Part shown: in pieces, positions 10,488 to 57,735 of the stretch | How the letters are laid out: each line of letters opens with the position of its first letter | Numbering within the stretch: position 1 is the first letter of the stretch | NCBI RefSeq assembly: GCF_024223415.1 | Contig: NZ_CP100502.1 | Length of the DNA: 64,000 bases | Source of the DNA: Escherichia coli | Lineage (GTDB): Bacteria > Pseudomonadota > Gammaproteobacteria > Enterobacterales > Enterobacteriaceae | Reading direction: 5' to 3' (one strand) | Notes under the pieces: model-generated | Seen by the model: the letters and a program-made list of their open reading frames with translations, nothing else | The model's database searches: none | What the model was told of the DNA's origin: nothing | Made by a program: the position numbers and the translations under genes

Positions 10488-11208
<721 letters not shown>

Positions 11209-14660: not shown

Positions 14661-14913
14661 CCGCCTTCATCTCCGCTTCAGTTTCGTATAAATCAAAACG
14701 ACGGCAGGTATGGCAGAACGTGACGTATTCGTACGGTGAATCCGGGTACATTTTGTGGAAGGTTTCCCAGAAACAGACCGTACAGGAGGGATGACCGGCG
14801 ATAAAGTCTGTAAATACAGACTGATAAGGGTGATTATTGGCCCTGGCGACGGCTTTCAGAACCTCTTTCACCATTCTGGTGTGGACTTTCTGGTGCTCCA
14901 GGTTGTGTGACAT
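14641..14913 (-). CDS. Cys/His-rich ORF upstream of and overlapping the IS91-family tnpA start in another frame (upstream accessory ORF or frameshifted N-terminus)
   Basis: 90-aa ORF with HPSCTVCFWETFHKMY...CHTCRRF; overlaps tnpA by 20 nt in a different frame. Confidence 0.35.
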   Translation of the reverse strand: MSHNLEHQKVHTRMVKEVLKAVARANNHPYQSVFTDFIAGHPSCTVCFWETFHKMYPDSPYEYVTFCHTCRRFDLYETEAEMKADDPKWW

Positions 14914-15127
14914 GGGAACTCATTCTGGATGGTTACTCTGAAAGCTCATATTCTGCCACACCACGATTTGCAGCCGCCAGGCTGCCGTGGTTCATGGTTA
15001 GGTTTTGCGATAGTATATTTACGAGCTGATTAAGGTTTGGCATAGTGTGGTTCGTAAGAAAAATTACTATTATGCCTTGTCCTTAGTCAGCTTTTTTGTT
15101 TTTTGTCGTGTACAGAGAGAAGCCCCC

Positions 15128-15943
15128 ATGAATAAATCGCTCATCATTTTCGGCATCGTCAACATAACCTCGGACAGTTTCTCCGATGGAGGCCGGTATC
15201 TGGCGCCAGACGCAGCCATTGCGCAGGCGCGTAAGCTGATGGCCGAGGGGGCAGATGTGATCGACCTCGGTCCGGCATCCAGCAATCCCGACGCCGCGCC
15301 TGTTTCGTCCGACACAGAAATCGCGCGTATCGCGCCGGTGCTGGACGCGCTCAAGGCAGATGGCATTCCCGTCTCGCTCGACAGTTATCAACCCGCGACG
15401 CAAGCCTATGCCTTGTCGCGTGGTGTGGCCTATCTCAATGATATTCGCGGTTTTCCAGACGCTGCGTTCTATCCGCAATTGGCGAAATCATCTGCCAAAC
15501 TCGTCGTTATGCATTCGGTGCAAGACGGGCAGGCAGATCGGCGCGAGGCACCCGCTGGCGACATCATGGATCACATTGCGGCGTTCTTTGACGCGCGCAT
15601 CGCGGCGCTGACGGGTGCCGGTATCAAACGCAACCGCCTTGTCCTTGATCCCGGCATGGGGTTTTTTCTGGGGGCTGCTCCCGAAACCTCGCTCTCGGTG
15701 CTGGCGCGGTTCGATGAATTGCGGCTGCGCTTCGATTTGCCGGTGCTTCTGTCTGTTTCGCGCAAATCCTTTCTGCGCGCGCTCACAGGCCGTGGTCCGG
15801 GGGATGTCGGGGCCGCGACACTCGCTGCAGAGCTTGCCGCCGCCGCAGGTGGAGCTGACTTCATCCGCACACACGAGCCGCGCCCCTTGCGCGACGGGCT
15901 GGCGGTATTGGCGGCGCTGAAAGAAACCGCAAGAATTCGTTAA
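15128..15943 (+). CDS. sul2: Sulfonamide-resistant dihydropteroate synthase Sul2
   Basis: 271 aa from MNKSLIIFGIVNITSDSFSDGGRYLAPDAAIAQARKLMAEGADVIDLG. Confidence 0.95.
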   Translation: MNKSLIIFGIVNITSDSFSDGGRYLAPDAAIAQARKLMAEGADVIDLGPASSNPDAAPVSSDTEIARIAPVLDALKADGIPVSLDSYQPATQAYALSRGVAYLNDIRGFPDAAFYPQLAKSSAKLVVMHSVQDGQADRREAPAGDIMDHIAAFFDARIAALTGAGIKRNRLVLDPGMGFFLGAAPETSLSVLARFDELRLRFDLPVLLSVSRKSFLRALTGRGPGDVGAATLAAELAAAAGGADFIRTHEPRPLRDGLAVLAALKETARIR

Positions 15944-16029
15944 CTGCACATTCGGGATATTTCTCTATATTCGCGGTTCAGCAGGCATGTCCCCTTTGAG
16001 GGCGACCCGACGACAGGATAATCGACCTT

Positions 16030-16275
16030 ATGGTGCGCAAATATTTCGGCACAGACGGTATTCGTGGCAAAGCCAACGAAGGCGCGATGACGGCGGAAAC
16101 CGCCTTGCGCGTCGGCATGGCGGCTGGCCGTGTCTTTCGTCGCGGTGACCACCGCCATCGTGTCGTGATCGGCAAGGATACGCGCCTGTCGGGCTATATG
16201 CTTGAACCCGCGCTCACAGCCGGTTTCACCTCGATGGGCATGGACGTATTCCTTTTTGGCCCGCTGCCGACAACG
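16030..16275 (+). pseudogene. glmM: Truncated phosphoglucosamine mutase fragment, the usual sul2-associated relic
   Basis: [36 protein letters not shown]... then loss of similarity. Confidence 0.8.
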
Positions 16276-16507
16276 TATAGGAAGAATAAACGCCCTTTTC
16301 ACCCAAGTCCAACAGCTTTGGACCGCAGTTGACTCTTTCGACACCCCTGCGATGCAACCCAATCCGGCTGACGGGGAGCCAGCAACGCTGAAAATTTACC
16401 CTCCTCTTTCCCACTAGCGGCTCCTTTTCCGACAACCAGCACGGCGGATCCCTGCCGCGGCGCTGTGAACGCAGCATTTTGATTGGTATCGTTGGCCTTC
16501 AGGCTCG

Positions 16508-17644
16508 TCAGTCAAACAGACCCAGGAGCAGCTCAGCCGGTGGCGCCCGGCTTTCGGGTAACGCCCTGGTCCCGCTGGTTTCGGCTTTGTGCTTCAGGTG
16601 ATCAAGGATCTGCTTGATCACTATAGGGTCTTCAATGCAGGCGATGACTTTCATGGCGCCGCCGCAGCCGCTGCAGGTCTCGATGTCGATATTGAAAACA
16701 CGCTTGAGCCGTTGCGCCCATGTCATCGACGCTCGCCGTTGTGCTGGTGTTGCCGGTTCATCAGCCACCCTGACCTTGTTGCCCCTGCCCCGTTTTGCCG
16801 GCGTGACCAACGCCCGGTGCCGACTGTTGGGTGCGAACACCCCGTGGAAGCGGGTTAGGTTGACTCTGGGCTTCGGTACCAGGGCGGCCAGCCTTGCAAT
16901 GAAATCCAATGGTTCGAAAATGACGTGCGTGGTGCCGTCCCGGTACGGCGTCTTGAGCTGGTAGCGCACGTTGCCGCCTCGTGTTAACGACAGCCGCTTC
17001 TCGGATACCGCCGGGCGGCTGATGTACCGGCACAGCCGTTCGAGCTTCTTGCGTTCATCGGCCCTGGCCGCCACGCCGGCGTGCAGGCTGGACCCGGCTA
17101 CCTTGCCAATCCCGTCACCGAACGGATCACCACTGGTCGGCAGAGTTTGCAAAGTGAACACCTTTCGCCCCGCCTGTGAACCGACAGCGATACGGTAAGT
17201 GATCGAGTGCCCCAGCAGGGGTGTCATCGGGTCGTCATCCACCGCATCCGAGGCCAGATAGCTGTTTTCGACATCCCGTTCCAGCAGGCCTTGCCGTTCC
17301 AGATAGCGACCCACCCGGTGGGCGATGGTGTGCGTCAGCTGGGTGAGCTCTGGGGTGGTCGGCGCCTTGACCCAGCGGAAACGCGCTGAGCCGTGGGATT
17401 GCTCGACATACACACCGTCGAGAAACAGCATGTGGAAGTGAACATTCAGATTGAGCGCCGATCCAAAACGCTGGATCAGGGTGACCGCGCCCGTCTTGGC
17501 CACTTGGTGGGTATGGCCCGCTTTCTTGACCAGGTGCGTGGCAATGACGCGGTAAACGATGCCCAGCACCCACCCCATGATCTCGGGCCGGCTGGCAAAC
17601 AGGAAACGCAGCTGAAACGGGAAGCTCAACACCCACTGACGCAT
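16508..17644 (-). CDS. IS91-family ISCR2-like transposase, probably lacking the N-terminal zinc-binding region
   Basis: 378-aa ORF with HFH (HUH) and YxxxY motifs and ISCR-type C-terminus IDIETCSGCGGAMKVIACIEDPIVIKQILDHL; adjacent to sul2 and truncated glmM. Confidence 0.7.
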   Translation of the reverse strand: MRQWVLSFPFQLRFLFASRPEIMGWVLGIVYRVIATHLVKKAGHTHQVAKTGAVTLIQRFGSALNLNVHFHMLFLDGVYVEQSHGSARFRWVKAPTTPELTQLTHTIAHRVGRYLERQGLLERDVENSYLASDAVDDDPMTPLLGHSITYRIAVGSQAGRKVFTLQTLPTSGDPFGDGIGKVAGSSLHAGVAARADERKKLERLCRYISRPAVSEKRLSLTRGGNVRYQLKTPYRDGTTHVIFEPLDFIARLAALVPKPRVNLTRFHGVFAPNSRHRALVTPAKRGRGNKVRVADEPATPAQRRASMTWAQRLKRVFNIDIETCSGCGGAMKVIACIEDPIVIKQILDHLKHKAETSGTRALPESRAPPAELLLGLFD

Positions 17645-35834: not shown

Positions 35835-37109
35835 CTAACCCAGCCTGGCCAGGGGAATATCTCGCCATTTAGTTGTATAACACTGACTCAACATTTCCCG
35901 TTTCATTTGCCATTCAGGGGCGGTTCCTCGCCCCGCAAACCACACTTTCCCTTTTCCCGACTGGTTCAGTTCATCGAGTGTTTTCATTAACTTTTCACTG
36001 TTTTTACGGGGCTGGATTTCATCAAATAATCCCGGCTGCGCTATACCCGATGGTGTGAAATCAGCCAGCATGACACCTGCCTTCATATAGCGGTACCCTT
36101 CACGCCAGACATGGTTTAAGGCTCTGCATGCGGCGGCAATAATGTCCCGGCTGTCCTGTGTGGGCAATGGAAGCTTTTCCACAGCGGCATTGCTGTAACA
36201 GGGTTCTTTTACTGCAAAGGGTGATGTCCGTACAAATGTCGTCACCTGCCGGCAATACTGACGCTCCCCACGTAGTTTCTCTGCGGCCCGCTCTGCATAC
36301 TGAACAACAGCCTGGTGCATGGCATCTTTGTCTGTGATTCGTTCACCAAAACTGCGACTACAGACAATCTGCTGTTTTGCCGGTGGTGCTTCTTCCAGGG
36401 ATATGCAGGACTCGCCGTTGAGTTCGCGTACCGTACGCTCAAGAATGACGCTGAAGTTTTTCCGGATGAATGCCGTGTTAGCCTGCGCCAGCTGCAGTGC
36501 TGTGTTAATACCCAGCGCATTCAGCTTTTCCGTCAGTCTGTGTCCTACTCCCCAGACCTCACCAACTGGCTGCAGCCCCAGTAGCTTCAAGATCCGATTA
36601 CGGTTTTCTGCCGTCAGCGCGACCACTCCGGAAAACTGTGGCCATTGCTTTGTTGCCCACTGTGCACTTTTAGCCAGCGTTTTTGTAGGCGCAATGCCCA
36701 CCCCCATGGTGAGTCCTGTCCAGCTCTTTACCTGTTTCCTGAGCTGATGACCAAAAAACTCCGGAGAGATGCAATGATTTATCCCCCGCAAATCAATGAA
36801 CATTTCATCAATTGAGTAGGGCTCAACTGCGGGAGAAAGCGACTCCAGAACAGCCATAACCCGTTGGCTCATGCTGTGGTACAGCGCATAATTGCTGGAA
36901 AATACATGTATTTTCTTCTCCAGGCGCATTTGTCTCACCTGAAACCAGGGCTGCCCCATTCTGATGCCAAGGGCTTTTGCCTCCGGGCTGCGCGCGATCA
37001 CACAGCCATCGTTATTGCTGAGTACGATGACCGGTTCGTTGCGAAGGTCCGGGCGGAAAACTTTTTCACATGAGGCGTAGAAACTGTTGATATCAGCCAG
37101 TGCAAACAT
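35835..37109 (-). CDS. impB: Error-prone polymerase subunit, UmuC homologue
   Basis: 424-aa Y-family polymerase ORF (MFALADINSFYASCE). Confidence 0.9.
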   Translation of the reverse strand: MFALADINSFYASCEKVFRPDLRNEPVIVLSNNDGCVIARSPEAKALGIRMGQPWFQVRQMRLEKKIHVFSSNYALYHSMSQRVMAVLESLSPAVEPYSIDEMFIDLRGINHCISPEFFGHQLRKQVKSWTGLTMGVGIAPTKTLAKSAQWATKQWPQFSGVVALTAENRNRILKLLGLQPVGEVWGVGHRLTEKLNALGINTALQLAQANTAFIRKNFSVILERTVRELNGESCISLEEAPPAKQQIVCSRSFGERITDKDAMHQAVVQYAERAAEKLRGERQYCRQVTTFVRTSPFAVKEPCYSNAAVEKLPLPTQDSRDIIAAACRALNHVWREGYRYMKAGVMLADFTPSGIAQPGLFDEIQPRKNSEKLMKTLDELNQSGKGKVWFAGRGTAPEWQMKREMLSQCYTTKWRDIPLARLG

Positions 37110-37546
37110 CAGCGTAACTCCCGCGTCCTGTGTATCACGTGAGTGACAACACCAAAAATACAGATGTTTTCCGGATACAGTGTGCGGAACTCCGGGCTGT
37201 CTGAAACCGGCTCCAGTGCCGGGCGTGGGCGCAACAGCAGTCGTTTGACGGTGAACTCACCGTCGATCTCAGCGATAACGATGTCCCCGTGTTGTGGTTT
37301 TTCGGCCCTGTCCACTACCAGCAGATCACCATTCTGCACGCCAGCCTGGTTCATCGATTCACCGCTGGCGCGCAGAAAGAAGGTGGCTGCAGGTCTGCTG
37401 ATGCAATAGCTGTTCAGATCCAGTTCCTGCTCAGCATAATCAGTGGCAGGCGAAGGAAAACCGGCCTGGCAACGATCGGCAAACAACGGTCGCACGTAAC
37501 TGTCATCGCCTGAAGGGTCAGCCGGACGGTGATAAACGGTACTCAT
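37109..37546 (-). CDS. impA: UmuD homologue
   Basis: 145-aa ORF with LexA-like self-cleavage domain. Confidence 0.85.
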   Translation of the reverse strand: MSTVYHRPADPSGDDSYVRPLFADRCQAGFPSPATDYAEQELDLNSYCISRPAATFFLRASGESMNQAGVQNGDLLVVDRAEKPQHGDIVIAEIDGEFTVKRLLLRPRPALEPVSDSPEFRTLYPENICIFGVVTHVIHRTRELR

Positions 37547-37791
37547 GCTGCAGGCAGCCAGCTGTCGTCCTGCCAGATTTCTTCCAGCAGAGACAGGATA
37601 CGTTCTTTATCCTTGTCGTTGCGGGCTCCTGTGACAGATACAGACGGGGCGCTGCCCTGGTCTATACGCAGCCAGATTTCCGGGTAGTGTGGTTTCAGAC
37701 GTTGTTCGATTTCATTCTGTAGCGCCTGAAGTGTGCCTGATTTGAGGTTTTTTGTGCTCTGGCGGTCGAAAAGAATTTCAATGCGGATCAT
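37543..37791 (-). CDS. impC: ImpC, small first gene of the impCAB operon
   Basis: 82-aa ORF upstream of and overlapping impA. Confidence 0.75.
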   Translation of the reverse strand: MIRIEILFDRQSTKNLKSGTLQALQNEIEQRLKPHYPEIWLRIDQGSAPSVSVTGARNDKDKERILSLLEEIWQDDSWLPAA

Positions 37792-37830: not shown

Positions 37831-38184
37831 TATTCTAATAACTGAATCCGCACACAGTCAAATGTCATTGTTGTGACTAAAAAACGCTCAATTCTCTGAG
37901 TGTGTGGCTGTATGCCTGCTGTGGGCTGCTGTGTCCAGCTTATCCACAGCATTTTGTGCACGGTTCTGTGGACAAAATACCTGGTTACCCAGGCCGTGCC
38001 GGCACGTTAACCGGGCTGCATCCGATGCAAGTGTGTCGCTGTCGCCGGCCTCCTCACCCGGTCACGTTTCGTCGTTCCTCCTCCACGCGCTGCGGCTTCG
38101 GGGCCGCACCTGCATTCGTATGCGGTCGCCCGGTAACAGGTGCGGCACGGCCTGATGGAGGCCGCATGTGAGAGGAGAATTCCC

Positions 38185-39111
38185 ATGCCAAACTGGTGCT
38201 CGAATCGTATGTATTTTTCTGGTGAACCGGCACAGATCGCTGAGATTAAACGACTGGCCAGCGGTGCAGTTACACCGCTTTATCGCCGCGCCACAAATGA
38301 AGGTATTCAGCTGTTTCTGGCCGGAAGTGCCGGACTTCTGCAGATCACTGAAAATATCCGCTCTGAACAGTGCCCCGGAGTGACGGCTGCCGGACGTGGT
38401 GCTGTATCGACGGAAAATATCGCGTTCACCCGCTGGCTGACACACCTGCAGAACGGTGTACTGCTGGATGAGCAAAACTGCCTGATGCTGCATGAACTCT
38501 GGCTGCAGAGCGGTACTGGACAGCGTCGCTGGGAAGGATTACCGGATGATGTCAGGGAAACCATCACTGTGCATTTCACCGCAAAAAGAGGTGACTGGTG
38601 TGACATCTGGGGTAGCGAGGATGTATCGGTGTGGTGGAACCGTCTGTGTGACAACGTAGTGCCGGAAAAAACCATGCCGTTTGACCTGCTGACGGTTCTG
38701 CCGACCCGCCTGGATGTTGAAGTGAATGGCTTTAATGGTGGTGTTCTGAACGGTGTTCCTTCTGCATATCACTGGTATACAGAACGGTATGGCGTGAAGT
38801 GGCCTTGTGGGTATGACCTGAATATCAGTAGTCAGGGAGACAACTGCATTCAGGTGGATTTCGACACGCCGTGGTGTCAGCCGGAAAGCGACGTTGTTGC
38901 AGCATTAAGCCGCCGTTTCGGCTGCACGCTGGAGCACTGGTACGCCGAACAGGGCTGCAATTTCTGTGGCTGGCAGTTGTATGAGCGCGGAGAGCTCGTT
39001 GATGTGCTCTGGGGGGAACTGGAATGGTCTTCCCCGACAGATGACGATGAGCTGCCGGAAGTCACCGGACCTGCGTGGATAGTCGACAAGGTGGCGCATT
39101 ACGGGGGATGA
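38185..39111 (+). CDS. Hypothetical leading-region protein
   Basis: 308 aa from MPNWCSNRMYF with SD GAGGAG. Confidence 0.55.
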   Translation: MPNWCSNRMYFSGEPAQIAEIKRLASGAVTPLYRRATNEGIQLFLAGSAGLLQITENIRSEQCPGVTAAGRGAVSTENIAFTRWLTHLQNGVLLDEQNCLMLHELWLQSGTGQRRWEGLPDDVRETITVHFTAKRGDWCDIWGSEDVSVWWNRLCDNVVPEKTMPFDLLTVLPTRLDVEVNGFNGGVLNGVPSAYHWYTERYGVKWPCGYDLNISSQGDNCIQVDFDTPWCQPESDVVAALSRRFGCTLEHWYAEQGCNFCGWQLYERGELVDVLWGELEWSSPTDDDELPEVTGPAWIVDKVAHYGG

Positions 39112-39495
39112 AGTATGACGGAGACGGGCGGGCAACCGCCCGTTTCTTTTCCGACAAAGGATGTCGCCGTGCTCCTCTGTTTACTGCGCCGGCTGATGCG
39201 GCGCGGCATAAACGCTGCCTGTGGTCAGTGTCCCGCGTCCGGCGGGCACGGGACGGGCGCTTTTACCGCTCCCGGCTGGCGTCGGTGACAGTGTACGCCA
39301 GCCTGTCGCCCTTTTCTGATGAACGCCCTTCAAGCCGCTTTCGCGGCATATTCTCGCCGTCAAAAAGACGACGGCTGCGATATTCCACGGTCGGCCTGAC
39401 CCGTTACCGGACGCGGTGAACAGCCCACAGGCAGCGGGGAACGGGCACCACAGGGGTGCCCTCCCGGTGCCCTCTGAGAAAGAAGGAGTGTTGTT

Positions 39496-40179
39496 ATGTC
39501 CCGTTTTGTCCTCGGTAACTGCATTGATGTTATGGCGCGTATTCCTGATAACGGCATTGATTTCATACTGACTGACCCGCCATACCTCGTCGGTTTTCGT
39601 GACCGACAGGGGCGTACCATCGCCGGCGATAAAACCGATGAATGGCTGCAACCAGCCTGTAATGAAATGTATCGCGTACTCAAAAAAGATGCGCTGATGG
39701 TCAGCTTCTACGGCTGGAACCGCGTCGATCGCTTTATGGCCGCCTGGAAAAATGCGGGATTCAGTGTGGTTGGGCACCTGGTCTTCACCAAAAACTACAC
39801 ATCGAAGGCCGCATATGTGGGTTATCGCCACGAATGCGCCTACGTTCTGGCAAAAGGCCGTCCGGCGCTGCCTCAGAAGCCATTACCCGACGTGCTGGGC
39901 TGGAAATATTCAGGCAATCGTCATCACCCGACGGAAAAGCCTGTTACCAGCCTGCAACCACTGATTGAGAGCTTCACACATCCGAACGCGATTGTGCTGG
40001 ACCCGTTTGCAGGCAGCGGCTCAACCTGCGTGGCTGCCCTTCAGTCCGGACGCCGGTATATCGGTATCGAGCTGCTTGAGCAGTATCACCGTGCCGGACA
40101 GCAACGTCTGGCTGCCGTACAGCGGGCCATGCAGCAGGGGGCCGCAAATGATGACTGGTTTATGCCGGAGGCTGCGTAA
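39496..40179 (+). CDS. Orphan DNA methyltransferase (N6-adenine/N4-cytosine type, DPPY motif)
   Basis: 227-aa ORF; DPPY motif and FAGSGST AdoMet-binding motif. Confidence 0.85.
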   Translation: MSRFVLGNCIDVMARIPDNGIDFILTDPPYLVGFRDRQGRTIAGDKTDEWLQPACNEMYRVLKKDALMVSFYGWNRVDRFMAAWKNAGFSVVGHLVFTKNYTSKAAYVGYRHECAYVLAKGRPALPQKPLPDVLGWKYSGNRHHPTEKPVTSLQPLIESFTHPNAIVLDPFAGSGSTCVAALQSGRRYIGIELLEQYHRAGQQRLAAVQRAMQQGAANDDWFMPEAA

Positions 40180-40401
40180 ATGAACTATGCCGGACATGAA
40201 AAACTTCGCGCCGAAGTGGCGGAGGTGGCCAATGCCATGTGCGACCTGCGTACAACCATGAATGAGATGGAGCGGCGGTACAGCTTTAATGCTGACACCC
40301 TGCCGGAACGTCTGGTGCGTCAGACGTTGTTTCGCGCAAACCGCCTCCTGATGGAGGCATATACCGAAATTCTGGAACTGGATTCCTGCTTCAAAGATTG
40401 A
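40180..40401 (+). CDS. Hypothetical small protein
   Basis: 73-aa ORF starting at the methylase stop. Confidence 0.45.
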   Translation: MNYAGHEKLRAEVAEVANAMCDLRTTMNEMERRYSFNADTLPERLVRQTLFRANRLLMEAYTEILELDSCFKD

Positions 40402-40412
40402 GGGGAGAGAGT

Positions 40413-40847
40413 ATGTACGGAACATGCGAAATACTCTGCCGGGAGCTGGCAGCAAAGTATCCGGCAGACACGCCACTGATGCTGGTTGTCTGGTCCCCTG
40501 AAGAGATTCAGGCCCTCGCTGACGGAATGGATATTTCCCTGTCCGATCATGAAATCAGGACCGTCCTGGCGCGCCTGGAGGACATCCCGGAAGACCAGCG
40601 GATTGAGTCCGGTATTTCTTCCGGCGTGGCGATGGAGATTATCAGCAACGTGAGAGAAAACCGCCAGGTGACCGTCCCTGCTGAACTGCTGGCGTCCCTG
40701 ATTCAGACCGCTGAACAGGCACTGTGGAAACGTGAATGGGCCGCCCGTGATAACGGCCTTGCCGTCCCGGAATGTGTTACCCGCCGTCAGGCAGTGATTA
40801 ATCAGGCCCGCACCCTGCTGAAAAACAACACACACGAAAACAACTGA
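40413..40847 (+). CDS. Hypothetical leading-region protein
   Basis: 144 aa from MYGTCEIL with SD. Confidence 0.5.
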
Positions 40848-40897
40848 TGTTATCGCCGCCTGCCCTGCGGGCGGCGATACAGGGAGAACGCTTAATC

Positions 40898-41668
40898 ATG
40901 AACAAAACGCTGAATGCACTGGTTTGTCGTCACGCCCGTAACCTGCTGCTGGCGCAGGGCTGGCCGGAAGAGACGGATGTTGACCAGCGAAATCCGAACT
41001 ATCCGGGCTGGATCAGCATTTACGTGCGGCTGGATGCGCCCCGGCTGGCGACGTTACTTATCAACCGTCACGGCGGCGTACTGCCGCCGCTCCTGGCCTC
41101 CGCCATTCAGAGACTGACCGGAACCGGGGCGGAACTGGTACTGTCCGGCAGTCAGTGGCAGTCGCTGCCGGTACTTCCGGCAGACGGAACGCAGGTGTCT
41201 TTCCCGTATGCCGGAGAATGGCTGACCGAAGACGAAATCAGGGCTGTTCTTGATGCGGTGCACGATGCGGTACGAAGCATCTGTTACCAGGTGGCAGAAG
41301 ATGCGCGGCGTATCCGTGCGGCGCTGACCACCACCGGTCAGACGTTGCTGACCCGCCAGACGCGCCGCTTTCGCCTGGTCGTGAAGGAAAGCGATCACCC
41401 CTGCTGGCTCGATGAAGATGACGAAAACCTGCCCGTGGTGCTCGATGCCATCGTGAACCGGGGAGCACGTTTTTCGTCGGTGGAAATGTACCTGGTCAGC
41501 GATTGTATTGAGCATATCCTGTCCTGTGGGCTGGCCTGCGATGTGCTGCGTATACCCGATGAACCGCCCCGCCGCTGGTTTGACCGTGGTGTTCTGCGGG
41601 AGGTGGTCCGGGAAGCCCGGACCGAAATCCGCAGCATGGCGGATGCCCTGGCAAAAATCCGGAAATGA
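40898..41668 (+). CDS. Hypothetical leading-region protein
   Basis: 256 aa from [10 protein letters not shown] with SD AGGGAGAA. Confidence 0.5.
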
Positions 41669-41726
41669 TGACACTGGCGGGGTAAATCCCCGCCTTTTTC
41701 CTGCCGGTCCCCGGACAGAGCACAAA

Positions 41727-42058
41727 GGAAGTCGCCGCCGGCTCCGCTTTACCCGGCCATGCGGGGCATGGCCTTGTGGGTTTTCAGTTATGTGGCCACC
41801 GTGTCGTGTGCGGGCTGTGCCGTGCCTCCATCTTAGCCGGGCTGGCAGGGATGCAAGGGTACGCTTCGCCGCTGCGGTCACCCGGTCCCTCCTTCCCGTC
41901 TGCCGTGATTTTCCGGTCGTTCACCCGCTCAGATTTCGCGGTCTCACCCTCCAACTCCCGCCAGCCGTGTGCGTCAGGCTGCGGCTTCCCTTGCGCCCTG
42001 TGCATCCCCGCCTTATCGCCCGGCTTTTATGGAGGCACGGCACCGCCCGGTGTCGCGG
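41727..42058. repeat. Leading-region GC-rich repeat, family B copy 1 (Frpo/ssi-like single-strand promoter candidate)
   Basis: About 330 bp nearly identical to 48711-49040; directly upstream of klcA/ardB-like gene. Confidence 0.7.
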
Positions 42059-42085
42059 AATATGTGAACAACGGAGGAATACATC

Positions 42086-42511
42086 ATGCAATATGCGAAA
42101 CCTGTCACTCTGAATGTTGAAGAGTGCGACCGTCTGTTTTTTCTGCCTTACCTGTTTGGCCAGGATTTTCTGTATGTCGAAGCGTCTGTGTACGCGCTGG
42201 CGAAAAAAATGATGCCGGAATATGAAGGCGGATTCTGGCACTTCATCCGCCTGCCGGACGGTGGCGGCTACATGATGCCGGATGGCGACCGTTTCCACAT
42301 AGTGAACGGTGCAAACTGGTTTGACCGTACCGTGAGTGCTGATGCCTGCGGCATCATTCTGACTTCCCTTGTGATTAACCGCCAGTTGTGGCTGTACCAC
42401 GACAGCGGTGATGCAGGACTGACCCAGCTTTACCGGATGCGCGATGCGCAGTTGTGGCGTCACATCGAATTTCACCCTGAATGCAACGCGATTTACGCGG
42501 CTCTGGACTGA
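42086..42511 (+). CDS. klcA: Antirestriction protein, KlcA/ArdB family
   Basis: 141 aa; [17 protein letters not shown] and C-terminal NAIYAALD motifs recalled from KlcA. Confidence 0.75.
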
Positions 42512-42557: not shown

Positions 42558-42980
42558 ATGTACTGTACTGTTAAAGAAATTATCCGCGAAGTGCTGGATA
42601 CAGACGTGCCGGACAGTGAATGCGTTTTTGCCGTGGTGCTGACCCGTGGGGATGTGCGTCACATAGCCCAGGACTGGAACCTGTCAGACGATGAGCTGGA
42701 AACCGTCATGCAGCGGCTGGACGATGCCTTTGAGCATGGTGCGGATGTCAGCGTTGTTCACGACGTTGTTCGTGAACTGATGGAAGAAAAGCGCGCCAGC
42801 CGTCATGTGACAGTCCCGGCGATGATGCTGGAAAAAGTGATGGCGCTGGCAGGCAGTGAAATGAAGCGCCTGTATGCCGTCGGAAGTGAGAACGGGGGCG
42901 ACGGTGACGCATTCGTCAGGGAGGAACGCGAAGCAATGGACGTTGTGTTACAGGCGCTGGACGGGGAGACGATGTCATGA
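42558..42980 (+). CDS. Hypothetical acidic leading-region protein
   Basis: 140-aa ORF with SD AAGGAGA. Confidence 0.5.
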   Translation: MYCTVKEIIREVLDTDVPDSECVFAVVLTRGDVRHIAQDWNLSDDELETVMQRLDDAFEHGADVSVVHDVVRELMEEKRASRHVTVPAMMLEKVMALAGSEMKRLYAVGSENGGDGDAFVREEREAMDVVLQALDGETMS

Positions 42981-43168: not shown

Positions 43169-43404
43169 TACAGGGGCAGGCGGTGGAGGCCGCCTGTCAG
43201 CCCGCGCGAAAACCCCTGGCAGGCTGACGCCTGCCGGAAGGGAAGCGGGCCACGCTGGCGCGTCGCCCGTTACCCTTCCCGTCTGTGATGTGTCTGACTC
43301 AGGAGTGTTTCTTTCTTATGTTATGGAACTGTTCCTGATGTTGTTGTTCCTTTATCTGCTGCTCTGATTCTGACTACTGCAGTGTTGTTCTGTCTGCCGG
43401 GCGC

Positions 43405-43920
43405 ACCTTCGGCTCCCGGCTGCCTGGCGGCATCCGGTCGTCAGGCCCGACTCCGACAGGCAGCTGCTGGCGCACCCGCCAGTCTCCGCCGAACCCGCTG
43501 GCGCGGTTTCGGGCTGTCGCTACGGTCCGATGCGTGAAAACCCGGGCTTGCAGCGACCGTTCCGGTCGCGCCGCCTCTGTCGCGCCGTGACCTGCGCTCC
43601 CTGCACACCTGACGGTGTGTGAGGAAACTGCGCCTGATGGCGCAGCAGTCCTCCCTCCTGCCGCCACCTCTGCGGCCTGTTTCCCGCTGTGGACTTTCCG
43701 GGGGGCAGACGTAACCCCCTCCCGTTCCATCTGTCCAGGGTGAGATGCACCGGCCACAAAATTTTTAGCCATGAACCCGGCAAAAAATTTTGCGTCCGCC
43801 CCCGGACAGCTGTCCCGTGAGGCGGTAAACGGGCCCCCATCGGAAAGGTCCACTGCGGGGAGAAACCCCTGTGAAGTGGACGGCAGGAGGAGCTTTCGCT
43901 CCTCTGAAGGGGCACATGAA
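43405..43920. repeat. Leading-region GC-rich repeat, family A copy 1 (Frpo/ssi-like)
   Basis: About 515 bp highly similar to 49739-50255 and, in part, 52815-53150; directly upstream of ssb. Confidence 0.7.
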
Positions 43921-44516: not shown

Positions 44517-44792
<276 letters not shown>

Positions 44793-44850
44793 GAGAGGTG
44801 CCGGACGCGCGAACGTCCGGCAGGACATAAGCAATTATAAGGGGATGATT

Positions 44851-46809
44851 ATGCCTGTAACGAAGTGTGAACCAGAAACCACCCGCAAAGCAAGCCGTAA
44901 ATCTGCAAAAACGCAGGAAACTGCCCTGTCTGCCCTGCTGGCGCAGACGGAGGAAGTGAGCGTGCCGCTGGCCTCACTGATTAAATCACCGCTGAATGTG
45001 CGCACGGTGCCGTATTCTGTGGAGTCCGTCAGCGAACTGGCTGGGTCCATTAAGGGCGTTGGCCTGTTGCAGAATCTGGTCGTGCATACCCTGCCTGGTG
45101 ACCGTTACGGTGTCGCCGCAGGTGGTCGCCGACTGGCTGCACTCAACATGCTGGCAGAGCGCAACATCCTTCCGGCTGACTGGCCTGTCCGTGTGAAGGT
45201 CATCCCGCAGGAACTGGCGACTGCCGCATCGATGACCGAGAACGGTCATCGTCGGGATATGCACCCTGCCGAACAGATTGCCGGATTCCGCGCATTGGCG
45301 CAGGAAGGCAAAACACCTGCACAGACTGGCGACCTGCTGGGCTATTCACCCCGCCACGTTCAGCGAATGCTGAAACTGGCAGACCTTGCGCCTGTCATCC
45401 TCGATGCGCTGGCAGAGGACCGCATCACCACCGAGCACTGTCAGGCGCTGGCGCTGGAGAGCGACACCGCGCGTCAGGTGCAGGTGTTTGAAGCGGCCTG
45501 CCAGTCAGGATGGGGCGGTAAACCGGATGTGCGGGTTATCCGCAACCTGATTACGGAAAGTGAAGTGGCAGTGAAGGACAACACTAAATTCCGCTTTGTG
45601 GGGGCTGATGCCTTCTCGCCAGACGAATTGCGCACCGATTTGTTCAGCGATGACGGGGACGGTTATGTCGACCGCGTGGCGCTCGATGCCGCCCTGCTGG
45701 AAAAACTCCAGGCTGTTGCAGAGTTCCTTCGGGAAGCCGAAGGCTGGGAATGGTGCGCCGGGCGCATGGAGCCTGTCGGTGAGTGCCGTGAGGATGCCGG
45801 AACATACCGCTGTCTGCCGGAGCCGGAAGCGGTGCTGACGGAGGCGGAAGACGAACGCCTGAACGAACTGATGACGCGTTACGACGCGCTGGAAAACCAG
45901 TGTGAGGAATCCGACCTGCTGGAAGCAGAAATGAAGCTGATGCGCTGCATGGCGAAGGTCAGAGCGTGGACGCCGGAGATACGTGCCGGAAGCGGTGTGG
46001 TGGTGTCCTGGCGTTATGGCAACGTATGTGTCCAGCGTGGTGTGCAGTTGCGCAGTGAAGATGACGCGACTGACGACGCTGACCGCACGGAACAGGTGCA
46101 GGAGAAAGCGTCAGTGGAGGAAATCAGCCTGCCGTTGCTGACGAAAATGTCCTCAGAGCGCACGCTGGCAGTCCAGGCGGCACTCATGCAGCAGCCGGAC
46201 AAATCTCTGGCACTGCTGGCATGGACGCTCTGCCTGAATGTGTTTGGCAGCGGGGCGTACAGTAAACCAGCACAAATCAGCCTGGAATGTGAACATTATT
46301 CGCTGACCAGCGATGCGCCATCGGGGAAGGAAGGTGCCGCATTCATGGCGCTGATGGCAGAAAAATCCCGTCTTGCAGCCCTGCTGCCGGAGGGATGGTC
46401 ACGGGACATGACGACATTCCTGTCCCTCAGTCAGGAGGTGCTGTTATCCCTGCTCAGTTTCTGCACCGCATGCAGCCTTAACGGTGTCCAGACCCGTGAG
46501 TGTGGTCACACGTCACGCAGTCCGCTTGACTCGCTGGAAAGCGCTATCGGATTCCACATGCGCGACTGGTGGCAGCCGACAAAAGCAAACTTCTTCGGAC
46601 ACCTGAAAAAGCCGCAGATTATCGCAGCCCTGAATGAGGCCGGACTGTCCGGTGCCGCACGGGACGCGGAGAAGATGAAGAAAGGTGATGCGGCTGAACA
46701 TGCAGAGCACCATATGAAAGACAACCGCTGGGTTCCAGGCTGGATGTGTGCACCACATCCACAGACAGATGCCACTGAACGCACCGATAACCTGGCTGAT
46801 GCCGCCTGA
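44851..46809 (+). CDS. ParB-like nuclease-domain protein of the leading region
   Basis: 652 aa from MPVTKCEP; N-terminal ParB/Srx-like region. Confidence 0.75.
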   Translation: MPVTKCEPETTRKASRKSAKTQETALSALLAQTEEVSVPLASLIKSPLNVRTVPYSVESVSELAGSIKGVGLLQNLVVHTLPGDRYGVAAGGRRLAALNMLAERNILPADWPVRVKVIPQELATAASMTENGHRRDMHPAEQIAGFRALAQEGKTPAQTGDLLGYSPRHVQRMLKLADLAPVILDALAEDRITTEHCQALALESDTARQVQVFEAACQSGWGGKPDVRVIRNLITESEVAVKDNTKFRFVGADAFSPDELRTDLFSDDGDGYVDRVALDAALLEKLQAVAEFLREAEGWEWCAGRMEPVGECREDAGTYRCLPEPEAVLTEAEDERLNELMTRYDALENQCEESDLLEAEMKLMRCMAKVRAWTPEIRAGSGVVVSWRYGNVCVQRGVQLRSEDDATDDADRTEQVQEKASVEEISLPLLTKMSSERTLAVQAALMQQPDKSLALLAWTLCLNVFGSGAYSKPAQISLECEHYSLTSDAPSGKEGAAFMALMAEKSRLAALLPEGWSRDMTTFLSLSQEVLLSLLSFCTACSLNGVQTRECGHTSRSPLDSLESAIGFHMRDWWQPTKANFFGHLKKPQIIAALNEAGLSGAARDAEKMKKGDAAEHAEHHMKDNRWVPGWMCAPHPQTDATERTDNLADAA

Positions 46810-48607: not shown

Positions 48608-48710
48608 ACCAGACATGTATATTTTACGCAGGGACACGCCGATCATGATCGTTTCATATCAGGGGTGGTCTGGAGGTCATGCGGCGTGTCCTCTGCACTC
48701 GCCGGAATAA

Positions 48711-49040
48711 GGAAGTCGCCGGCGGCTCCGCTTTTACCCGGCCATGCGGGGCATGGCCTTGTGGGTTTTCAGCTCTGTGGCCTCAGCGTCGTGTGCGGGC
48801 TGTGCCGTGCCTCCATCTTAGCCGGGCTGGCAGGGATGCAAGGGTACGCTTCGCCGCTGCGGTCACCCGGTCCCTCCTTCCCGTCTGCCGTGATTTTCCG
48901 GTCGTTCACCCGCTCAGATTTCGCGGTCTCACCCTCCAACTCCCGCCAGCCGTGTGCGTCAGGCTGCGGCTTCCCTTGCGCCCTGTGCATCCCCGCCTTA
49001 TCGCCCGGCTTTTATGGAGGCACGGCACCGCCCGGTGTCG
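48711..49040. repeat. Leading-region repeat, family B copy 2 (Frpo/ssi-like)
   Basis: Nearly identical to 41727-42058; directly upstream of ardA. Confidence 0.7.
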
Positions 49041-49069
49041 CAGAACATGTGACTATGGAGGATTCGGGA

Positions 49070-49570: not shown

Positions 49571-49738
49571 TTTACTCCCCCGCTCCGGCGGGGGTATGGC
49601 CTGCCAGGCCGCCGGAAAACCCTGGCAGGCTTACGCCTGCCTGAAATGCAGGAGGGCCGCGCCTGCGGCGCTGCCCTTCCTGCCCGTCATGGTGTGAGGC
49701 ATTTTTCTGTTATGTCGTTTCTGTTGTTCTGATTTCCG

Positions 49739-50255
49739 GAGGCGGGGACACCTTCGGCTCCCGGCTGCCTGGCGGCATCCGGTCGTCAGGCCCGACTCCG
49801 ACAGGCAGCTGCTGGCGCACCCGCCAGTCTCCGCCGAACCCGCTGGCGCGGTTTCGGGCTGCCGCTACGGTCCGATGTCTGAAAAACCAGGCTTGCAGCG
49901 ACCGTTCCGGTCGCGCCGCCCCTGTCGCGCCGGAAACGGCGCTCCCTGCACACCTTACGGTGTGTAAGGCAACTGCGCCTGATGGCGCAGTCAACCCTTC
50001 CGCCGCCACCCCTGCGGCCTGTTTCCCGCTGTGGACTTTCCGGGGGCTGGAGTAACCACATCCCGTTTCAGCAGTCCAGGGGAAGATATACCGTCCACAA
50101 AATTTTTAGCCATAAACCCGGCAAAAAATTTTGCGTCCGCCCCCGGACAGCTGCCCCGTGACGTGGTGACGGACGCCCCATCGGAAAGGTCCACTGCGGG
50201 GAGAAACCCCGAAGAAGTGGACGGCAGAAGGGGCTTTCGCCCCTCCGGGGAGCAA
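49739..50255. repeat. Leading-region repeat, family A copy 2 (Frpo/ssi-like)
   Basis: Highly similar to 43405-43920. Confidence 0.7.
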
Positions 50256-52611: not shown

Positions 52612-52814
52612 AAAACACCTTTGAAAAAGTGAAAAAACTTCACTTTATTTTATCACCATAACCACCAAATCAGCGCGAAAAATAAGTGTGAAAAAGTGAA
52701 GGAATTTCACTTTTTTTGATTGTAGGTGTCGTGCTGTTTTCTCTGTTTTCACCTGTGCGGGAGTGGTGTGCCAGTGACCACCACATGCCATTGTTGCGCC
52801 GTCGTTTTTCTTCA

Positions 52815-53150
52815 GTCGCGCCGGATGCGGCGCTCCCTGCACACCTTACGGTGTGTAAGGCCACTGCGCCTGATGGCGCAGCTGTCTCTGCCTGTCTGCC
52901 GCCGCACTGCGGCCTGTTCTCCGCAGATGGACTTTCCGGGGGTACATACACGACCACATCCCGTTTCAGTCGTCCAGGGGAGAGATGTACCAGCCACAAA
53001 ACTTTTTGCCGCAGGCGTCAAAAACTTTTGCGTCTGCCCCCGGACAACTGCCCCGTGACGTGGTGAGCGTCCCCCGTCGGAAAGGTCCACTGCGGGGAAA
53101 TCCCCGAAGACCCGGACGGCAGAAGGAGCTTCGCTCCTCCGGGAAATGAC
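52815..53150. repeat. Leading-region repeat, family A copy 3 (partial)
   Basis: Aligns with the distal two-thirds of the family A repeats. Confidence 0.65.
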
Positions 53151-54559: not shown

Positions 54560-54692
54560 ATGCACAAAAATAACAGGCTATAATGGCCTGAAAAACGGGA
54601 CAGGATGTGCAATTGTAATACCGTCACACGCGACGCTATTACAATTGCCATCTGGTCAGGGCTTCGCCCCGACACCCCGTAAGGAGCCTGAA
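54560..54692. other. Putative origin of transfer (oriT)
   Basis: Immediately upstream of nikA; inverted repeat GCAATTGTAATAC ... TATTACAATTGC around 54609-54658. Confidence 0.5.
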
Positions 54693-55025
54693 GTGAGTGA
54701 TAGTGCGGTAAGAAAGAAAAGTGAGGTACGGCAAAAGACAGTTGTCAGGACACTCAGATTCTCTCCTGTTGAGGATGAAACCATCAGGAAAAAAGCTGAA
54801 GATTCCGGACTTACTGTATCTGCTTACATCCGAAATGCAGCACTGAATAAGCGAATTAACTCCCGTACAGATGATGCTTTTCTGAAGGAGTTAATGAGAC
54901 TGGGAAGGATGCAGAAGCATCTGTTTGTTCAGGGAAAAAGAACCGGTGACAAGGAATACGCAGAAGTGCTTGTTGCCATAACCGAACTTACAAATACATT
55001 GCGTAAACAGTTAATGGAAGGTTGA
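54693..55025 (+). CDS. nikA: Relaxosome accessory protein NikA (ribbon-helix-helix)
   Basis: 110 aa from GTG, MSDSAVRKKSEVRQKTVVRTLRFSPVEDETIRKK. Confidence 0.85.
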   Translation: MSDSAVRKKSEVRQKTVVRTLRFSPVEDETIRKKAEDSGLTVSAYIRNAALNKRINSRTDDAFLKELMRLGRMQKHLFVQGKRTGDKEYAEVLVAITELTNTLRKQLMEG

Positions 55026-55035
55026 GGATTCTCCG

Positions 55036-57735
55036 GTGAATGCAGTCATTCCGAAAAAGAGAAGGGACGGCAAGTCTTCGTTCGAAGACCTGGTATCCTA
55101 CGTCTCTGTCCGGGATGACATGACCGATGAGGAACTGGATTTATCTTCTTCTTCGCAGGCTGAACAACCGCACCGAAGCCGTTTCAGTCGCCTTGTTGAT
55201 TATGCGACACGTCTTCGAAATGAGTCATTCGTGGCGCTGGTTGATGTCATGAAGGACGGCTGCGAATGGGTCAACTTTTATGGTGTCACCTGCTTTCATA
55301 ACTGTACTTCTCTTGAAACTGCCGCTGCAGATATGGAGTACATTGCCCGGCAGGCACACTATGCAAAAGATGACACTGATCCTGTTTTTCACTACATCCT
55401 TTCCTGGCAGTCACATGAAAGCCCGCGTCCGGAACAGATTTATGACAGTGTACGTCATACGCTGAAATCACTCGGCCTTGCCGACCATCAGTATGTCTCT
55501 GCCGTGCATACTGATACAGATAATCTGCACGTCCATGTGGCTGTTAACCGGGTACACCCTGAAACGGGTTATCTGAACCGGTTATCCTGGAGTCAGGAAA
55601 AACTCAGTCGTGCCTGCCGTGAGCTTGAACTGAAGCATGGTTTTGCTCCGGATAACGGTTGCTGGGTCCATGCACCGGGAAATCGTATCGTTCGCAAAAC
55701 CGCCGTTGAACGTGATCGCCAGAACGCGTGGACACGCGGGAAAAAACAAACTTTTCGCGAGTATGTCGCGCAGACAGCGGTCGCTGGTTTACGCAGTGAA
55801 CCTGTAAATGACTGGTTATCCCTGCATCGTCGTCTTGCGGAAGATGGTCTGTACCTGTCTCAGATGGACGGAAAATTTCTGGTGATGGATGGCTGGGATC
55901 GCAACAGGGAAGGTGTACAGCTTGACTCGTTTGGTCCCTCCTGGTGTGCAGAAAAACTCATGAAAAAAATGGGTGACTACACGCCAGTACCAAAAGACAT
56001 TTTCAGCCAGGTGGAAGCACCAGGACGCTATAATCCGGACTTCATTGCCGCTGATGTTCGCCCGGAAAAAATCGCTGAAACAGAAAGTCTGCAGCAGTAT
56101 GCCTGTCGTCATCTTGGAGAACGTCTGCCGGAAATGGCACGGGAAGGACGGCTGGAAAACTGCCAGGCTATTCACCGCACACTGGCTGAAGCGGGATTAT
56201 GGATGCGTGTTCAGCATGGTCACCTGGTTATCTGTGACGGTTATGATCATAACCAGACTCCCGTTCGTGCTGACAGCGTATGGTCGCTGCTGACGCTCGA
56301 CAATGTGAATCAACTCGATGGTGGCTGGCAGCCTGTACCAACAGATATTTTCCGCCAGGTTACGCCAACAGAACGCTTCCGTGGTCGTCGTATGGAGAGC
56401 TGTCCTGCGACCGATAAAGAATGGCACCGTATGCGTACAGGCACGGGGCCGCAGGGGGCTATCAAACGCGAACTGTTTTCTGACAAAGAAAGTCTGTGGG
56501 GATACAGCATCAGCCATTGTAGCCCTCAGATTGAAGAAATGATCACACAGGGTGAGTTTACCTGGCAGCGTTGTCATGAGCTGTTTGCACAACAGGGACT
56601 GATGCTACAGAAACAACATCACGGGCTTGTTGTCGTTGATGCCTTTAATCATGAGCAAACGCCGGTGAAGGCCAGCAGCATTCATCCTGATCTGACACTG
56701 GGGCGTGCAGAGCCACAGGCCGGACCTTTTGTGAGTGCCCCAGCAGATTTGTTTGACAGGGTGCAACCTGAAAGTCGCTATAACCCGGAGCTGGCTGTCA
56801 GTGACAGGTACGGGGTCAGCAGTAAACGTGACCCAATGCTGCGCCGGCAGCGACGTGAAGCCAGAGCTGAGGCCCGTGCTGACCTGCGTGCCCGCTATCT
56901 GGCATGGCGTGAACAATGGCGTAAACCAGATCTGCGTTATGGGGAACGTTGTCGGGAAATTCATCAGGCATGCCGTCTGCGGAAGTCACACATTCGTGCG
57001 CAGTACGATGATCCGGCATTACGTAAGCTGCATTATCACATTGCAGAAGTTCAGCGAATGCAGGCATTGATCAGGCTGAAAGAAGACATCAGGGATGAGC
57101 GACAGAAACTTATTGCTGATGGGAAATGGTATCCACCCTCTTACCGTCAGTGGGTCGAAATTCAGGCTGCTCAGGGAGACAGGGCTGCTGTATCGCAGCT
57201 GAGAGGCTGGGATTATCGCGATCGCCGTAAAGACAGGTCACGCACAACGACGACAGACCGCTGTGTCGTGCTTTGTGAACCGGGCGGAACGCCGGTATAC
57301 GGTAATACCGGTGATCTCGAGGCCCGTCTGCAGAAGAACGGGAGTGTTCGTTTCCGTGACCGTCGGACGGGAGAGTTTGTCTGTACGGATTATGGTGACA
57401 GGGTTGTTTTCCGTAATCACCATGACCGCAATGCGCTGGCAGATAAACTGGATTTGATTGCACCGGTATTATTCGGGCGTGATCCACGCATGGGTTTTGA
57501 ACCAGAAGGAAACGACAAACAATTTAACCAGGTCTTTGCTGAAATGGTTGCCTGGCATAATGTGACAGGCCGTACCGGTCACGAAGACTACAGGATTACG
57601 CGACCGGACGTGGATCATCACCGTGAAGGAAGTGAACGCTACTACCGCGATTATATCGCGGCGAACAGCAACAATGACGCATCACTGCCTCCGCCGGAGC
57701 AGGATAAACGCTGGGAACCGCCTTCTCCAGGTTAA
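55036..57735 (+). CDS. nikB: Relaxase NikB
   Basis: 899-aa ORF with relaxase histidine motif HVHVAVNRVHPETG. Confidence 0.9.
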   Translation: MNAVIPKKRRDGKSSFEDLVSYVSVRDDMTDEELDLSSSSQAEQPHRSRFSRLVDYATRLRNESFVALVDVMKDGCEWVNFYGVTCFHNCTSLETAAADMEYIARQAHYAKDDTDPVFHYILSWQSHESPRPEQIYDSVRHTLKSLGLADHQYVSAVHTDTDNLHVHVAVNRVHPETGYLNRLSWSQEKLSRACRELELKHGFAPDNGCWVHAPGNRIVRKTAVERDRQNAWTRGKKQTFREYVAQTAVAGLRSEPVNDWLSLHRRLAEDGLYLSQMDGKFLVMDGWDRNREGVQLDSFGPSWCAEKLMKKMGDYTPVPKDIFSQVEAPGRYNPDFIAADVRPEKIAETESLQQYACRHLGERLPEMAREGRLENCQAIHRTLAEAGLWMRVQHGHLVICDGYDHNQTPVRADSVWSLLTLDNVNQLDGGWQPVPTDIFRQVTPTERFRGRRMESCPATDKEWHRMRTGTGPQGAIKRELFSDKESLWGYSISHCSPQIEEMITQGEFTWQRCHELFAQQGLMLQKQHHGLVVVDAFNHEQTPVKASSIHPDLTLGRAEPQAGPFVSAPADLFDRVQPESRYNPELAVSDRYGVSSKRDPMLRRQRREARAEARADLRARYLAWREQWRKPDLRYGERCREIHQACRLRKSHIRAQYDDPALRKLHYHIAEVQRMQALIRLKEDIRDERQKLIADGKWYPPSYRQWVEIQAAQGDRAAVSQLRGWDYRDRRKDRSRTTTTDRCVVLCEPGGTPVYGNTGDLEARLQKNGSVRFRDRRTGEFVCTDYGDRVVFRNHHDRNALADKLDLIAPVLFGRDPRMGFEPEGNDKQFNQVFAEMVAWHNVTGRTGHEDYRITRPDVDHHREGSERYYRDYIAANSNNDASLPPPEQDKRWEPPSPG

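Follow-up and report, generated by a model that had tools for sequence, protein, structure and literature searches.

A predicted DNA methyltransferase gene with no restriction partner on a conjugative plasmid raises the question of when, in which cell and on which form of DNA its product would act. The gene considered here occupies positions 39496..40179 (+) of a 64-kb stretch of DNA, referred to as the window. The original prediction placed it at the start of the leading region and proposed that its product could pre-protect incoming plasmid DNA from restriction in the recipient. Comparison with annotated plasmids showed that the window makes up the first 64 kb of a conjugative plasmid of the IncI1/I-gamma group. 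Positions 1-25000 are 100% identical to pF1005-1, beginning at base 1 of the pF1005-1 record, and positions 36000-63333 match ColIb-P9 and RCS58_p collinearly (98-99.7% identity).

The gene, an orthologue of the M.EcoGIX gene known on related plasmids as yfbB, runs from an ATG to a TAA stop and encodes 227 aa; a Shine-Dalgarno sequence, AAGGAG, lies at 39483..39488 (+), 7 nt 5' of the ATG. Direct reading of the sequence placed the catalytic motif IV, DPPY, at aa 27-30 (39574..39585, +) and the AdoMet-binding motif I, FAGSGST, at aa 171-177 (40006..40026, +). The latter aligns with motif I of CcrM and of other beta-class enzymes, and the order of the two, IV being N-terminal to I, is that of the beta permutation. 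In motif IV, DPPY rather than SPPY is a pointer to methylation of adenine at N6 and not N4. The protein matched Pfam PF01555 (N6_N4_Mtase) with E=1.7e-40 (aa 21-201 on profile positions 1-219 of 221). It also matched NCBIfam NF010253/PRK13699 ("DNA methyltransferase") end to end, residues 1-227 falling on profile positions 1-226, with 500.2 bits for a cut-off of 244. Matches among PDB sequences comprised CcrM, RsrI, MboIIA, PvuII and a DpnA-named enzyme, the alignment with these relatives being confined to the N-terminal ~30 aa and to aa ~139-208. The motifs and family matches are evidently far beyond chance, and they identify the product as a beta-class N6-adenine DNA methyltransferase; the reading frame and the two motifs from which the original prediction started were thus borne out by the sequence itself and by both family models.

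Comparison of individual plasmids assigns the window gene, on sequence grounds, to the ColIb-P9/R64-type allele (yfbB) of the plasmid methyltransferase M.EcoGIX. Its protein does not differ from the ColIb-P9 methylase WP_000086178.1 (100% identity) or from that of RCS58_p, and the label "yfbB: putative methylase" stands on 99.6%-identical IncI plasmids. M.EcoGIX of pESBL, the IncI1 plasmid of E. coli O104:H4 (NC_018659, 54782-55465), is likewise 227 aa long and shares 214 of the 227 residues with the window protein (94%, no gaps); the flanking genes, the upstream hairpin, and the distance and orientation to nikA/oriT are all the same in pESBL and in the window. We take the reference gene to be M.EcoGIX because published coordinates and cloning primers agree: Yamaichi et al. 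list pESBL 54782-55465 as M.EcoGIX (PMC4288162), and the primers with which Fomenkov et al. cloned it (PMC7736820) fit the window ORF at its first and last codons. The M.EcoGIX gene is the single methylase gene of pESBL-EA11. The identities to M.EcoGIX given by Yamaichi et al. are 94% for R64 YfbB, the same figure as for the window methylase, and 91% for the F homologue (PMC4288162). Eleven of the 13 substitutions between the window methylase and M.EcoGIX lie within aa 75-128, between the catalytic and the AdoMet-binding parts; this segment would hold target recognition, and the preference of the window allele could differ. The gene is intact, and its codon differences from the pESBL allele, 43 synonymous and 13 non-synonymous, show it to be under purifying selection.

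The surroundings of the gene hold no enzyme that would make it half of a restriction-modification pair. Upstream, impC-impA-impB (35835-37791, -) are followed by a DUF1281 gene (38140-39111) and a gap of 384 nt. An annotated "hypothetical protein" at 39108-39419 was rejected as a genuine upstream gene: the ORF has no family match, indels of 1 nt break its frame, and its annotation varies from plasmid to plasmid. In a Pfam search the neighbours of the methylase were the DUF1281 protein, a 73-aa ORF, a DUF1380 protein, a 273-aa ORF and a KlcA/ArdB-type protein, and the methylase lacks the adjacent cognate endonuclease gene that a type II restriction-modification system would have. Nor is any restriction enzyme annotated in near-identical plasmids over window positions 1-40.5 kb and 36-63 kb. 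Since an endonuclease is neither adjacent nor annotated in these plasmids over the window, the gene had been called an orphan with good reason.

With the genes downstream of it, the methylase forms a compact transcription unit, in which it comes first. The ATG of the 73-aa ORF (40180..40401, +; Hp9 of pESBL) directly follows the methylase stop, the gene for the 149-aa DUF1380 protein (40398..40847, +; PF07128, 9.2e-54) overlaps the preceding stop, and the 273-aa ORF (40847..41668, +; YchA/Hp11 of pESBL) is the last of the four, all of which abut or overlap. Eight nt past its stop lies an intrinsic-terminator-like hairpin, GGCGGGG-TAAAT-CCCCGCC followed by a T-run (41676..41704, +), which is the likely end of the operon. 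As the ORFs abut or overlap, a terminator follows and no duplex promoter was found, we treat the upstream hairpin described below, the four genes and the terminator as one unit. Searches of Pfam and NCBIfam gave no match for the 73-aa ORF, and searches of Pfam, NCBIfam and PDB sequences gave none for the 273-aa ORF. Both are conserved in place, the arrangement of the former being the same in ColIb-P9, pESBL and F and the position of the latter being kept in pESBL and F; indeed the whole module, from the hairpin through the methylase, the 73-aa ORF, DUF1380, a protein of ~260-270 aa and klcA on to ssb and psiB, is common to pESBL and F. In the window the operon is followed by the KlcA/ArdB-type antirestriction gene (42086), ssb (43974), ardA (about 49071) and further small genes, and then by nikA (ATG about 54693) and nikB (55036). 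A DUF1380 gene and a small ORF lie between klcA and ssb, and DUF905, parB-like, psiB and psiA genes follow ssb in that order.

The order in which these genes reach the recipient depends on the origin of transfer, whose core was located at 54596..54648 (-), just upstream of nikA. The (-) strand there reads ...TTGCACATCCTG/TCCCG... (+ coordinates 54596-54609), providing a nick-region motif, CACATCCTG/TCCCG, with a 17-bp inverted repeat beside it at 54610-54648. We take this motif to be the IncI1/IncP nick-region consensus, YATCCTG/Y. The slash marks the presumed position of the nick. The placement of oriT is supported by the annotation of nikA and nikB in ColIb-P9 and pESBL, and the repeats in the window fit the description of the R64-type oriT, in which 17-bp and 8-bp repeats lie directly upstream of nikA (PMC3817090). 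Because the nick motif sits on the (-) strand next to nikA, the transferred strand is predicted to be the (-) strand, entering toward falling coordinates. The nick and the methylase ATG are 15,104 nt (about 15.1 kb) apart. The gene lies on the (+) strand and points toward oriT, and all genes from the methylase to ardA are co-oriented with it; the leading-region genes being on the (+) strand, the entering (-) strand would therefore be their template. This orientation, which makes genes transcribable from the transferred strand, has been described as a rule for leading-region anti-defence genes and methylases, and the most strongly enriched leading-region families include orphan methylases (Samuel et al., PMC11541004). 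With oriT on one side and the maintenance region on the other, and with the transferred strand serving as its template, the methylase belongs to the leading region; it does not, as had been supposed, stand at its start, which it does only in window coordinates. The gene heads the most oriT-distal of six early operons and is the last, not the first, to enter.

The transferred strand was folded as DNA in windows of 300 nt, by the same method as in PMC12672017, where -75 kcal/mol was the threshold for a hairpin. Six regions fell below -79 kcal/mol, the background being -50.6 +/- 12.5. One lies directly upstream of the methylase (39180..39479, -) with a minimum of -91.7 kcal/mol, which passes the published threshold. 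The others lie upstream of klcA (41760-42059, -79.8 kcal/mol), ssb (43600-43899, -99.2 kcal/mol), ardA (48740-49039, -84.3 kcal/mol), an ORF at 50299 (49740-50039, -93.4 kcal/mol) and a DUF4942 gene (52840-53139, -92.4 kcal/mol). Folded as single-stranded DNA, the 401 nt from 39100 to 39500 gave -109.4 kcal/mol (z = -6.6 against shuffled sequences), and the core of the methylase hairpin is an imperfect 30-nt inverted repeat in which 39213-39242 pair with 39407-39436.

The six elements fall into two repeat families and one unique element. By blastn, 43383-43904, 49722-50245 and 52812-53143 are 80-89% alike, and 41725-42078 and 48709-49062 are 96.6% alike; the methylase hairpin gave no blastn match to the other five, and in a multiple alignment it showed only scattered short matches to the klcA and ardA elements. 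This grouping matches the scheme published for pESBL, in which a large hairpin stands upstream of each of six operons, with start sites determined by 5'-RACE: class 1 corresponds to ssi1-3/Frpo, class 2 precedes klcA and ardA, and class 3, unlike all others, precedes M.EcoGIX, classes 2 and 3 being conserved in F (PMC12672017). The methylase hairpin of the window would thus correspond to the class 3 single-strand promoter of M.EcoGIX, and its activity is predicted from that correspondence.

Conservation of the element agrees with such a role. Over 300 nt the hairpin is 96.7% identical to that of pESBL and 96.3% to that of F, and for the coding sequence next to it the DNA identities are lower, 90.2% and 93.1%, respectively; that the hairpin exceeds the coding sequence in identity points to selection on the DNA itself. 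Across 11 plasmids 96.8% of the predicted pairs are kept, in copies that are all >92% identical; within the same set, support from covariation was weak, amounting to one clean compensatory change, from A-T to G-C, and one register-shifted pair. A 421-bp stretch that spans the hairpin region and reaches 25 bases into the methylase gene was found at >90% identity in at least 5000 PLSDB records. A search by eye of the non-template arm and the inner branches of the methylase hairpin did not reveal convincing -35/-10 boxes: a -35/-10 candidate, GGGACA-18-TATGCC, was weak or not conserved, and TTGACG at the apical loop was discarded as a -35 box, there being no -10 box at 16-18 nt. F-type copies of the hairpin have TTCCTG where others have TTTATG. 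Across 39000-42100, no duplex sigma-70-like promoter was found, for 1.1 expected.

What such an enzyme would do in the cell can be taken from work on the 94%-identical orthologue, on which single-strand specificity, the preference for SAY, induction in the recipient and protection against restriction were all established; by analogy, the window allele is inferred to behave as M.EcoGIX. M.EcoGIX is a promiscuous m6A enzyme with SAY as its sequence context; only one strand is modified, at ~40% of sites; in vitro it methylates single-stranded DNA and not double-stranded DNA, and in its native host both plasmid and chromosome are unmodified, with no SAY marks (PMC7736820). It was first described as being without a conventional recognition sequence. 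In the same study, pESBL with the gene knocked out transferred up to 1000-fold less well when the recipient had EcoGIII or EcoRI and about 9-fold less well when it was a K. pneumoniae strain; the knockout had no effect with non-restricting recipients or with donors carrying the cognate methylase (PMC4288162). Inversion of oriT in pESBL abolishes the protection, and donor DNA is unmodified (PMC7736820). Because of these last two observations, the enzyme would be made in the recipient and act there on the entering strand. In RNA-seq of a 2025 study, the six leading-region operons of pESBL were induced up to ~500-fold at 15 min after mating (PMC12672017). We consider it very probable that the window gene serves plasmid establishment by countering restriction, and that it does so in the recipient cell.

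The course of events may be pictured as follows. The (-) strand would enter 5'-first from a nick at about 54600, as oriT motif and literature suggest, and ~15 kb later 39180-39479 would enter and fold into a large imperfect hairpin. This hairpin would serve the host RNA polymerase as a promoter only while single-stranded; for the element of pESBL, 96.7% identical, promoter activity has been demonstrated. A burst of transcription of the methylase, the 73-aa ORF, DUF1380 and the 273-aa ORF would follow in the recipient, as it does for the orthologue. The methylase, with AdoMet, would then place m6A on the entering single strand with very loose specificity and a preference for SAY, again as shown for the orthologue, and it may work together with DNA polymerase I during synthesis of the complementary strand, a published model for which one study has provided co-purification and fusion proteins (PMC7736820). 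The new duplex would be hemimethylated at many sites and partly resistant to the restriction enzymes of the recipient, in keeping with the genetics of the orthologue. Conversion of the hairpin to duplex would, in the published model, abolish the promoter, leaving the gene silent and established cells without a methylation signature; such silencing is consistent with the sequence here, since no duplex promoter was found upstream.

A conventional orphan methylase would work otherwise, modifying the duplex plasmid in the donor at a defined motif and thereby protecting the DNA before it arrives. Many orphan type II methylases behave in this way, the window enzyme has all catalytic motifs, and ecoGIXM transcription has been detected in the native host of M.EcoGIX. 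We nevertheless find such a role scarcely credible here: the orthologue leaves duplex substrates unmethylated in vitro, its native strain shows no modification of plasmid or host, and inversion of oriT, which leaves expression in the donor untouched, still abolishes protection (PMC7736820); nor does the window offer a duplex sigma-70-like promoter upstream of the gene. Of the original prediction of pre-protection, then, the anti-restriction role stands, on experiments with the orthologue (PMC4288162, PMC7736820), and methylation ahead of transfer falls. With it falls the proposal that lack of a plasmid-dependent methylation motif would refute the function: the native orthologue gives no SAY marks at steady state, and a blank steady-state methylome would wrongly reject a function that leaves no mark in established cells.

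The main role might also lie in plasmid DNA metabolism, as marking of the transferred strand for synthesis of its complement, strand discrimination or repair, or interference with competing polymerase I-dependent replicons and single-stranded DNA phages. M.EcoGIX does lower the copy number of ColE1 and p15A replicons in a polA-dependent manner and suppress replication of M13 (PMC7736820), and the gene is dispensable for transfer into non-restricting E. coli (PMC4288162). These effects were, however, seen under artificial constitutive expression, whereas from the native plasmid the gene is expressed only during the first minutes after entry (PMC12672017), and protection from restriction is the only phenotype in the native context (PMC4288162). 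We therefore regard a main role of this kind as very unlikely and retain anti-restriction in the recipient as the preferred reading.

How protection is brought about is less straightforward, in that the target adenines of CTGCAG (CAG) and of GAATTC (GAA, AAT) are not in SAY context. The published SAY specificity does not obviously explain the published protection against EcoGIII and EcoRI, a mismatch between SAY and protected sites that the literature on M.EcoGIX does not address. The phenotype could accordingly be due, in part or wholly, to the co-transcribed downstream genes, or to non-catalytic coating or occlusion of the strand together with polymerase I. The methylase leads a tightly packed operon of four whose other members are without known function, the published knockout is a cassette replacement of this first gene, and we found no complementation or catalytic-mutant test in conjugation in the M.EcoGIX literature. 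Set against this, EcoGIII and EcoRI are both blocked when adenine is methylated, and methylation is the simplest link to the two; no protection defect is seen with donors that carry the cognate methylase (PMC4288162); and non-SAY sites may be modified at levels that SMRT sequencing missed. The change of DPPY to APPA inactivates M.EcoGIX (PMC7736820), and catalysis was required for all other phenotypes tested, namely Mrr sensitivity, copy number and inhibition of M13. On balance, an origin of the phenotype in the downstream genes or in a non-catalytic action seems unlikely. Since SAY covers no adenine of either protected site and we found no mating test of a catalytic or non-polar mutant, we do see a small but real chance that SAY methylation alone is insufficient, and that specificity on the entering strand is much broader than SMRT sequencing showed, has been shifted in this allele by the 11 substitutions in aa 75-128, or is complemented by operon partners that target or extend the activity or are themselves anti-restriction factors.

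Methylation of the entering strand in the recipient thus remains the reading that we favour. The gene, its family, the activity on single-stranded DNA, the class of promoter and the protective role have all been published, and the window adds another copy of a known system, not new biology. The practical interest lies in the spread of resistance: this methylase family is among the commonest in the leading regions of IncI and IncF resistance plasmids, and the enzyme is one reason why restriction only weakly limits the spread of such plasmids. The useful outcome for this locus is a corrected picture, that of a gene in the last operon to enter, acting in the recipient and invisible in steady-state methylomes.

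The system can be set beside several others. One outside the IncI group is that of F, whose leading-region methylase WP_000085939.1 (YfeA in PMC4288162) shares 216 of 227 residues with the window methylase and diverges from it in the N-terminal 21 residues. The F plasmid has the same operon and hairpin (96.3%), likewise as its most oriT-distal early operon, and the F methylase transcript rises in transconjugants (PMC12672017), although the transfer system of F is MOBF/MPF_F and that of IncI1 is MOBP/MPF_I. M.BceJIII of the Burkholderia cenocepacia plasmid pBCA072 comes from a distant host and plasmid and is likened to M.EcoGIX by published behaviour, not by sequence: it too recognises SAY, is single-strand-specific and modifies one strand only (PMC7736820). 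Enzymes of the CcrM/RsrI/YhdJ type have the same fold family and motif order, CcrM (3.6e-16) and RsrI being the best PDB matches; unlike the window methylase they have 283-366 aa, are sequence-specific and act on duplex DNA, and the NCBIfam CcrM and PRK11524 models matched the window protein weakly, far below their cut-offs. DpnA of Streptococcus pneumoniae, a distant sequence relative of the window methylase (a DpnA-named beta-class enzyme is among the PDB matches), is a competence-induced single-stranded DNA methylase that protects incoming DNA once it is duplex (PMC3573125). It differs from M.EcoGIX in being encoded by the recipient, within a restriction-modification locus, in being specific for GATC and in serving transformation rather than conjugation. 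The logic of the two is nevertheless alike, a methylase that accepts single-stranded DNA being induced upon entry of foreign single-stranded DNA, and by this likeness DpnA can be regarded as the closest functional analogue outside plasmids.

The methylase gene (39496-40179) is directly abutted by three uncharacterised ORFs, encoding a 73-aa product, a DUF1380 protein and a 273-aa product (40180-41668), the whole forming one operon. All three are kept in pESBL and F; an NCBIfam search returned no match for any of them, nor did a PDB sequence search for which the 273-aa ORF was the sole query. A second DUF1380 paralogue is found at 42558-42980, within the klcA operon.

On the other side, flanked by the imp operon and by the hairpin of the methylase, lies a DUF1281/Api92-like gene (38140-39111, + strand, as the methylase) whose product carries a C-terminal ferredoxin-like domain. 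Upstream of this gene, the scan of the transferred strand (T-strand) showed no more than weak folding (-70 to -73 kcal/mol at 37860-38199). The stop of the DUF1281 gene overlaps, as ATGA, the start of a "hypothetical protein" ORF (39108-39419, + strand) that is annotated in ColIb-P9, pESBL and F. The whole of the latter ORF falls within the single-strand promoter hairpin upstream of the methylase, its product is rich in arginine, and a family search with it found no match. Comparison from plasmid to plasmid showed that it is hit by 1-nt indels and that its annotated length varies (228, 306 or 312 nt), the annotation being absent in some cases. It is thus probably a spurious gene call. The ATGA overlap is probably a coincidence.

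With regard to the published SAY context of M.EcoGIX, the pESBL orthologue of the methylase, about 28% of the T-strand adenines qualify. Protection has been shown against two systems, EcoGIII and EcoRI (PMC4288162), whose sites, CTGCAG and GAATTC, occur 46 and 12 times, respectively, in the whole window. However, the adenine whose methylation blocks EcoGIII/PstI has the context CAG, and those whose methylation blocks EcoRI have the contexts GAA and AAT, all of which lie outside the published SAY preference.

Near the replicon, a resistance mosaic (2999-17000), read off pF1005-1 at 100% identity, comprises the transposases of TnAs1 and Tn3, a class 1 integron carrying dfrA1 and an aadA cassette, and both blaTEM-1 and sul2. 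The umuC/impB-like gene (35835-37109) is uninterrupted in the window, whereas in two otherwise near-identical plasmids it is split, by an IS66-family element in RCS58_p and by an IS21 element in pF1005-1.

The T-strand fold scan also revealed a seventh strongly folding segment (45200-45499; -80 kcal/mol), internal to a parB-like gene (44761-46809), with no operon directly downstream; it is absent from the set of six published hairpins. The dispersed repeats form two families, every copy of which coincides with a stretch where the T-strand folds strongly, immediately preceding an operon. The two-copy family (41725-42078 and 48709-49062, upstream of klcA and ardA) corresponds to the published class 2 single-strand promoters, while the three-copy family (43383-43904, 49722-50245 and 52812-53143, upstream of ssb, the ORF at 50299 and the DUF4942 gene, respectively) corresponds to class 1 (ssi/Frpo) of the same scheme (PMC12672017).
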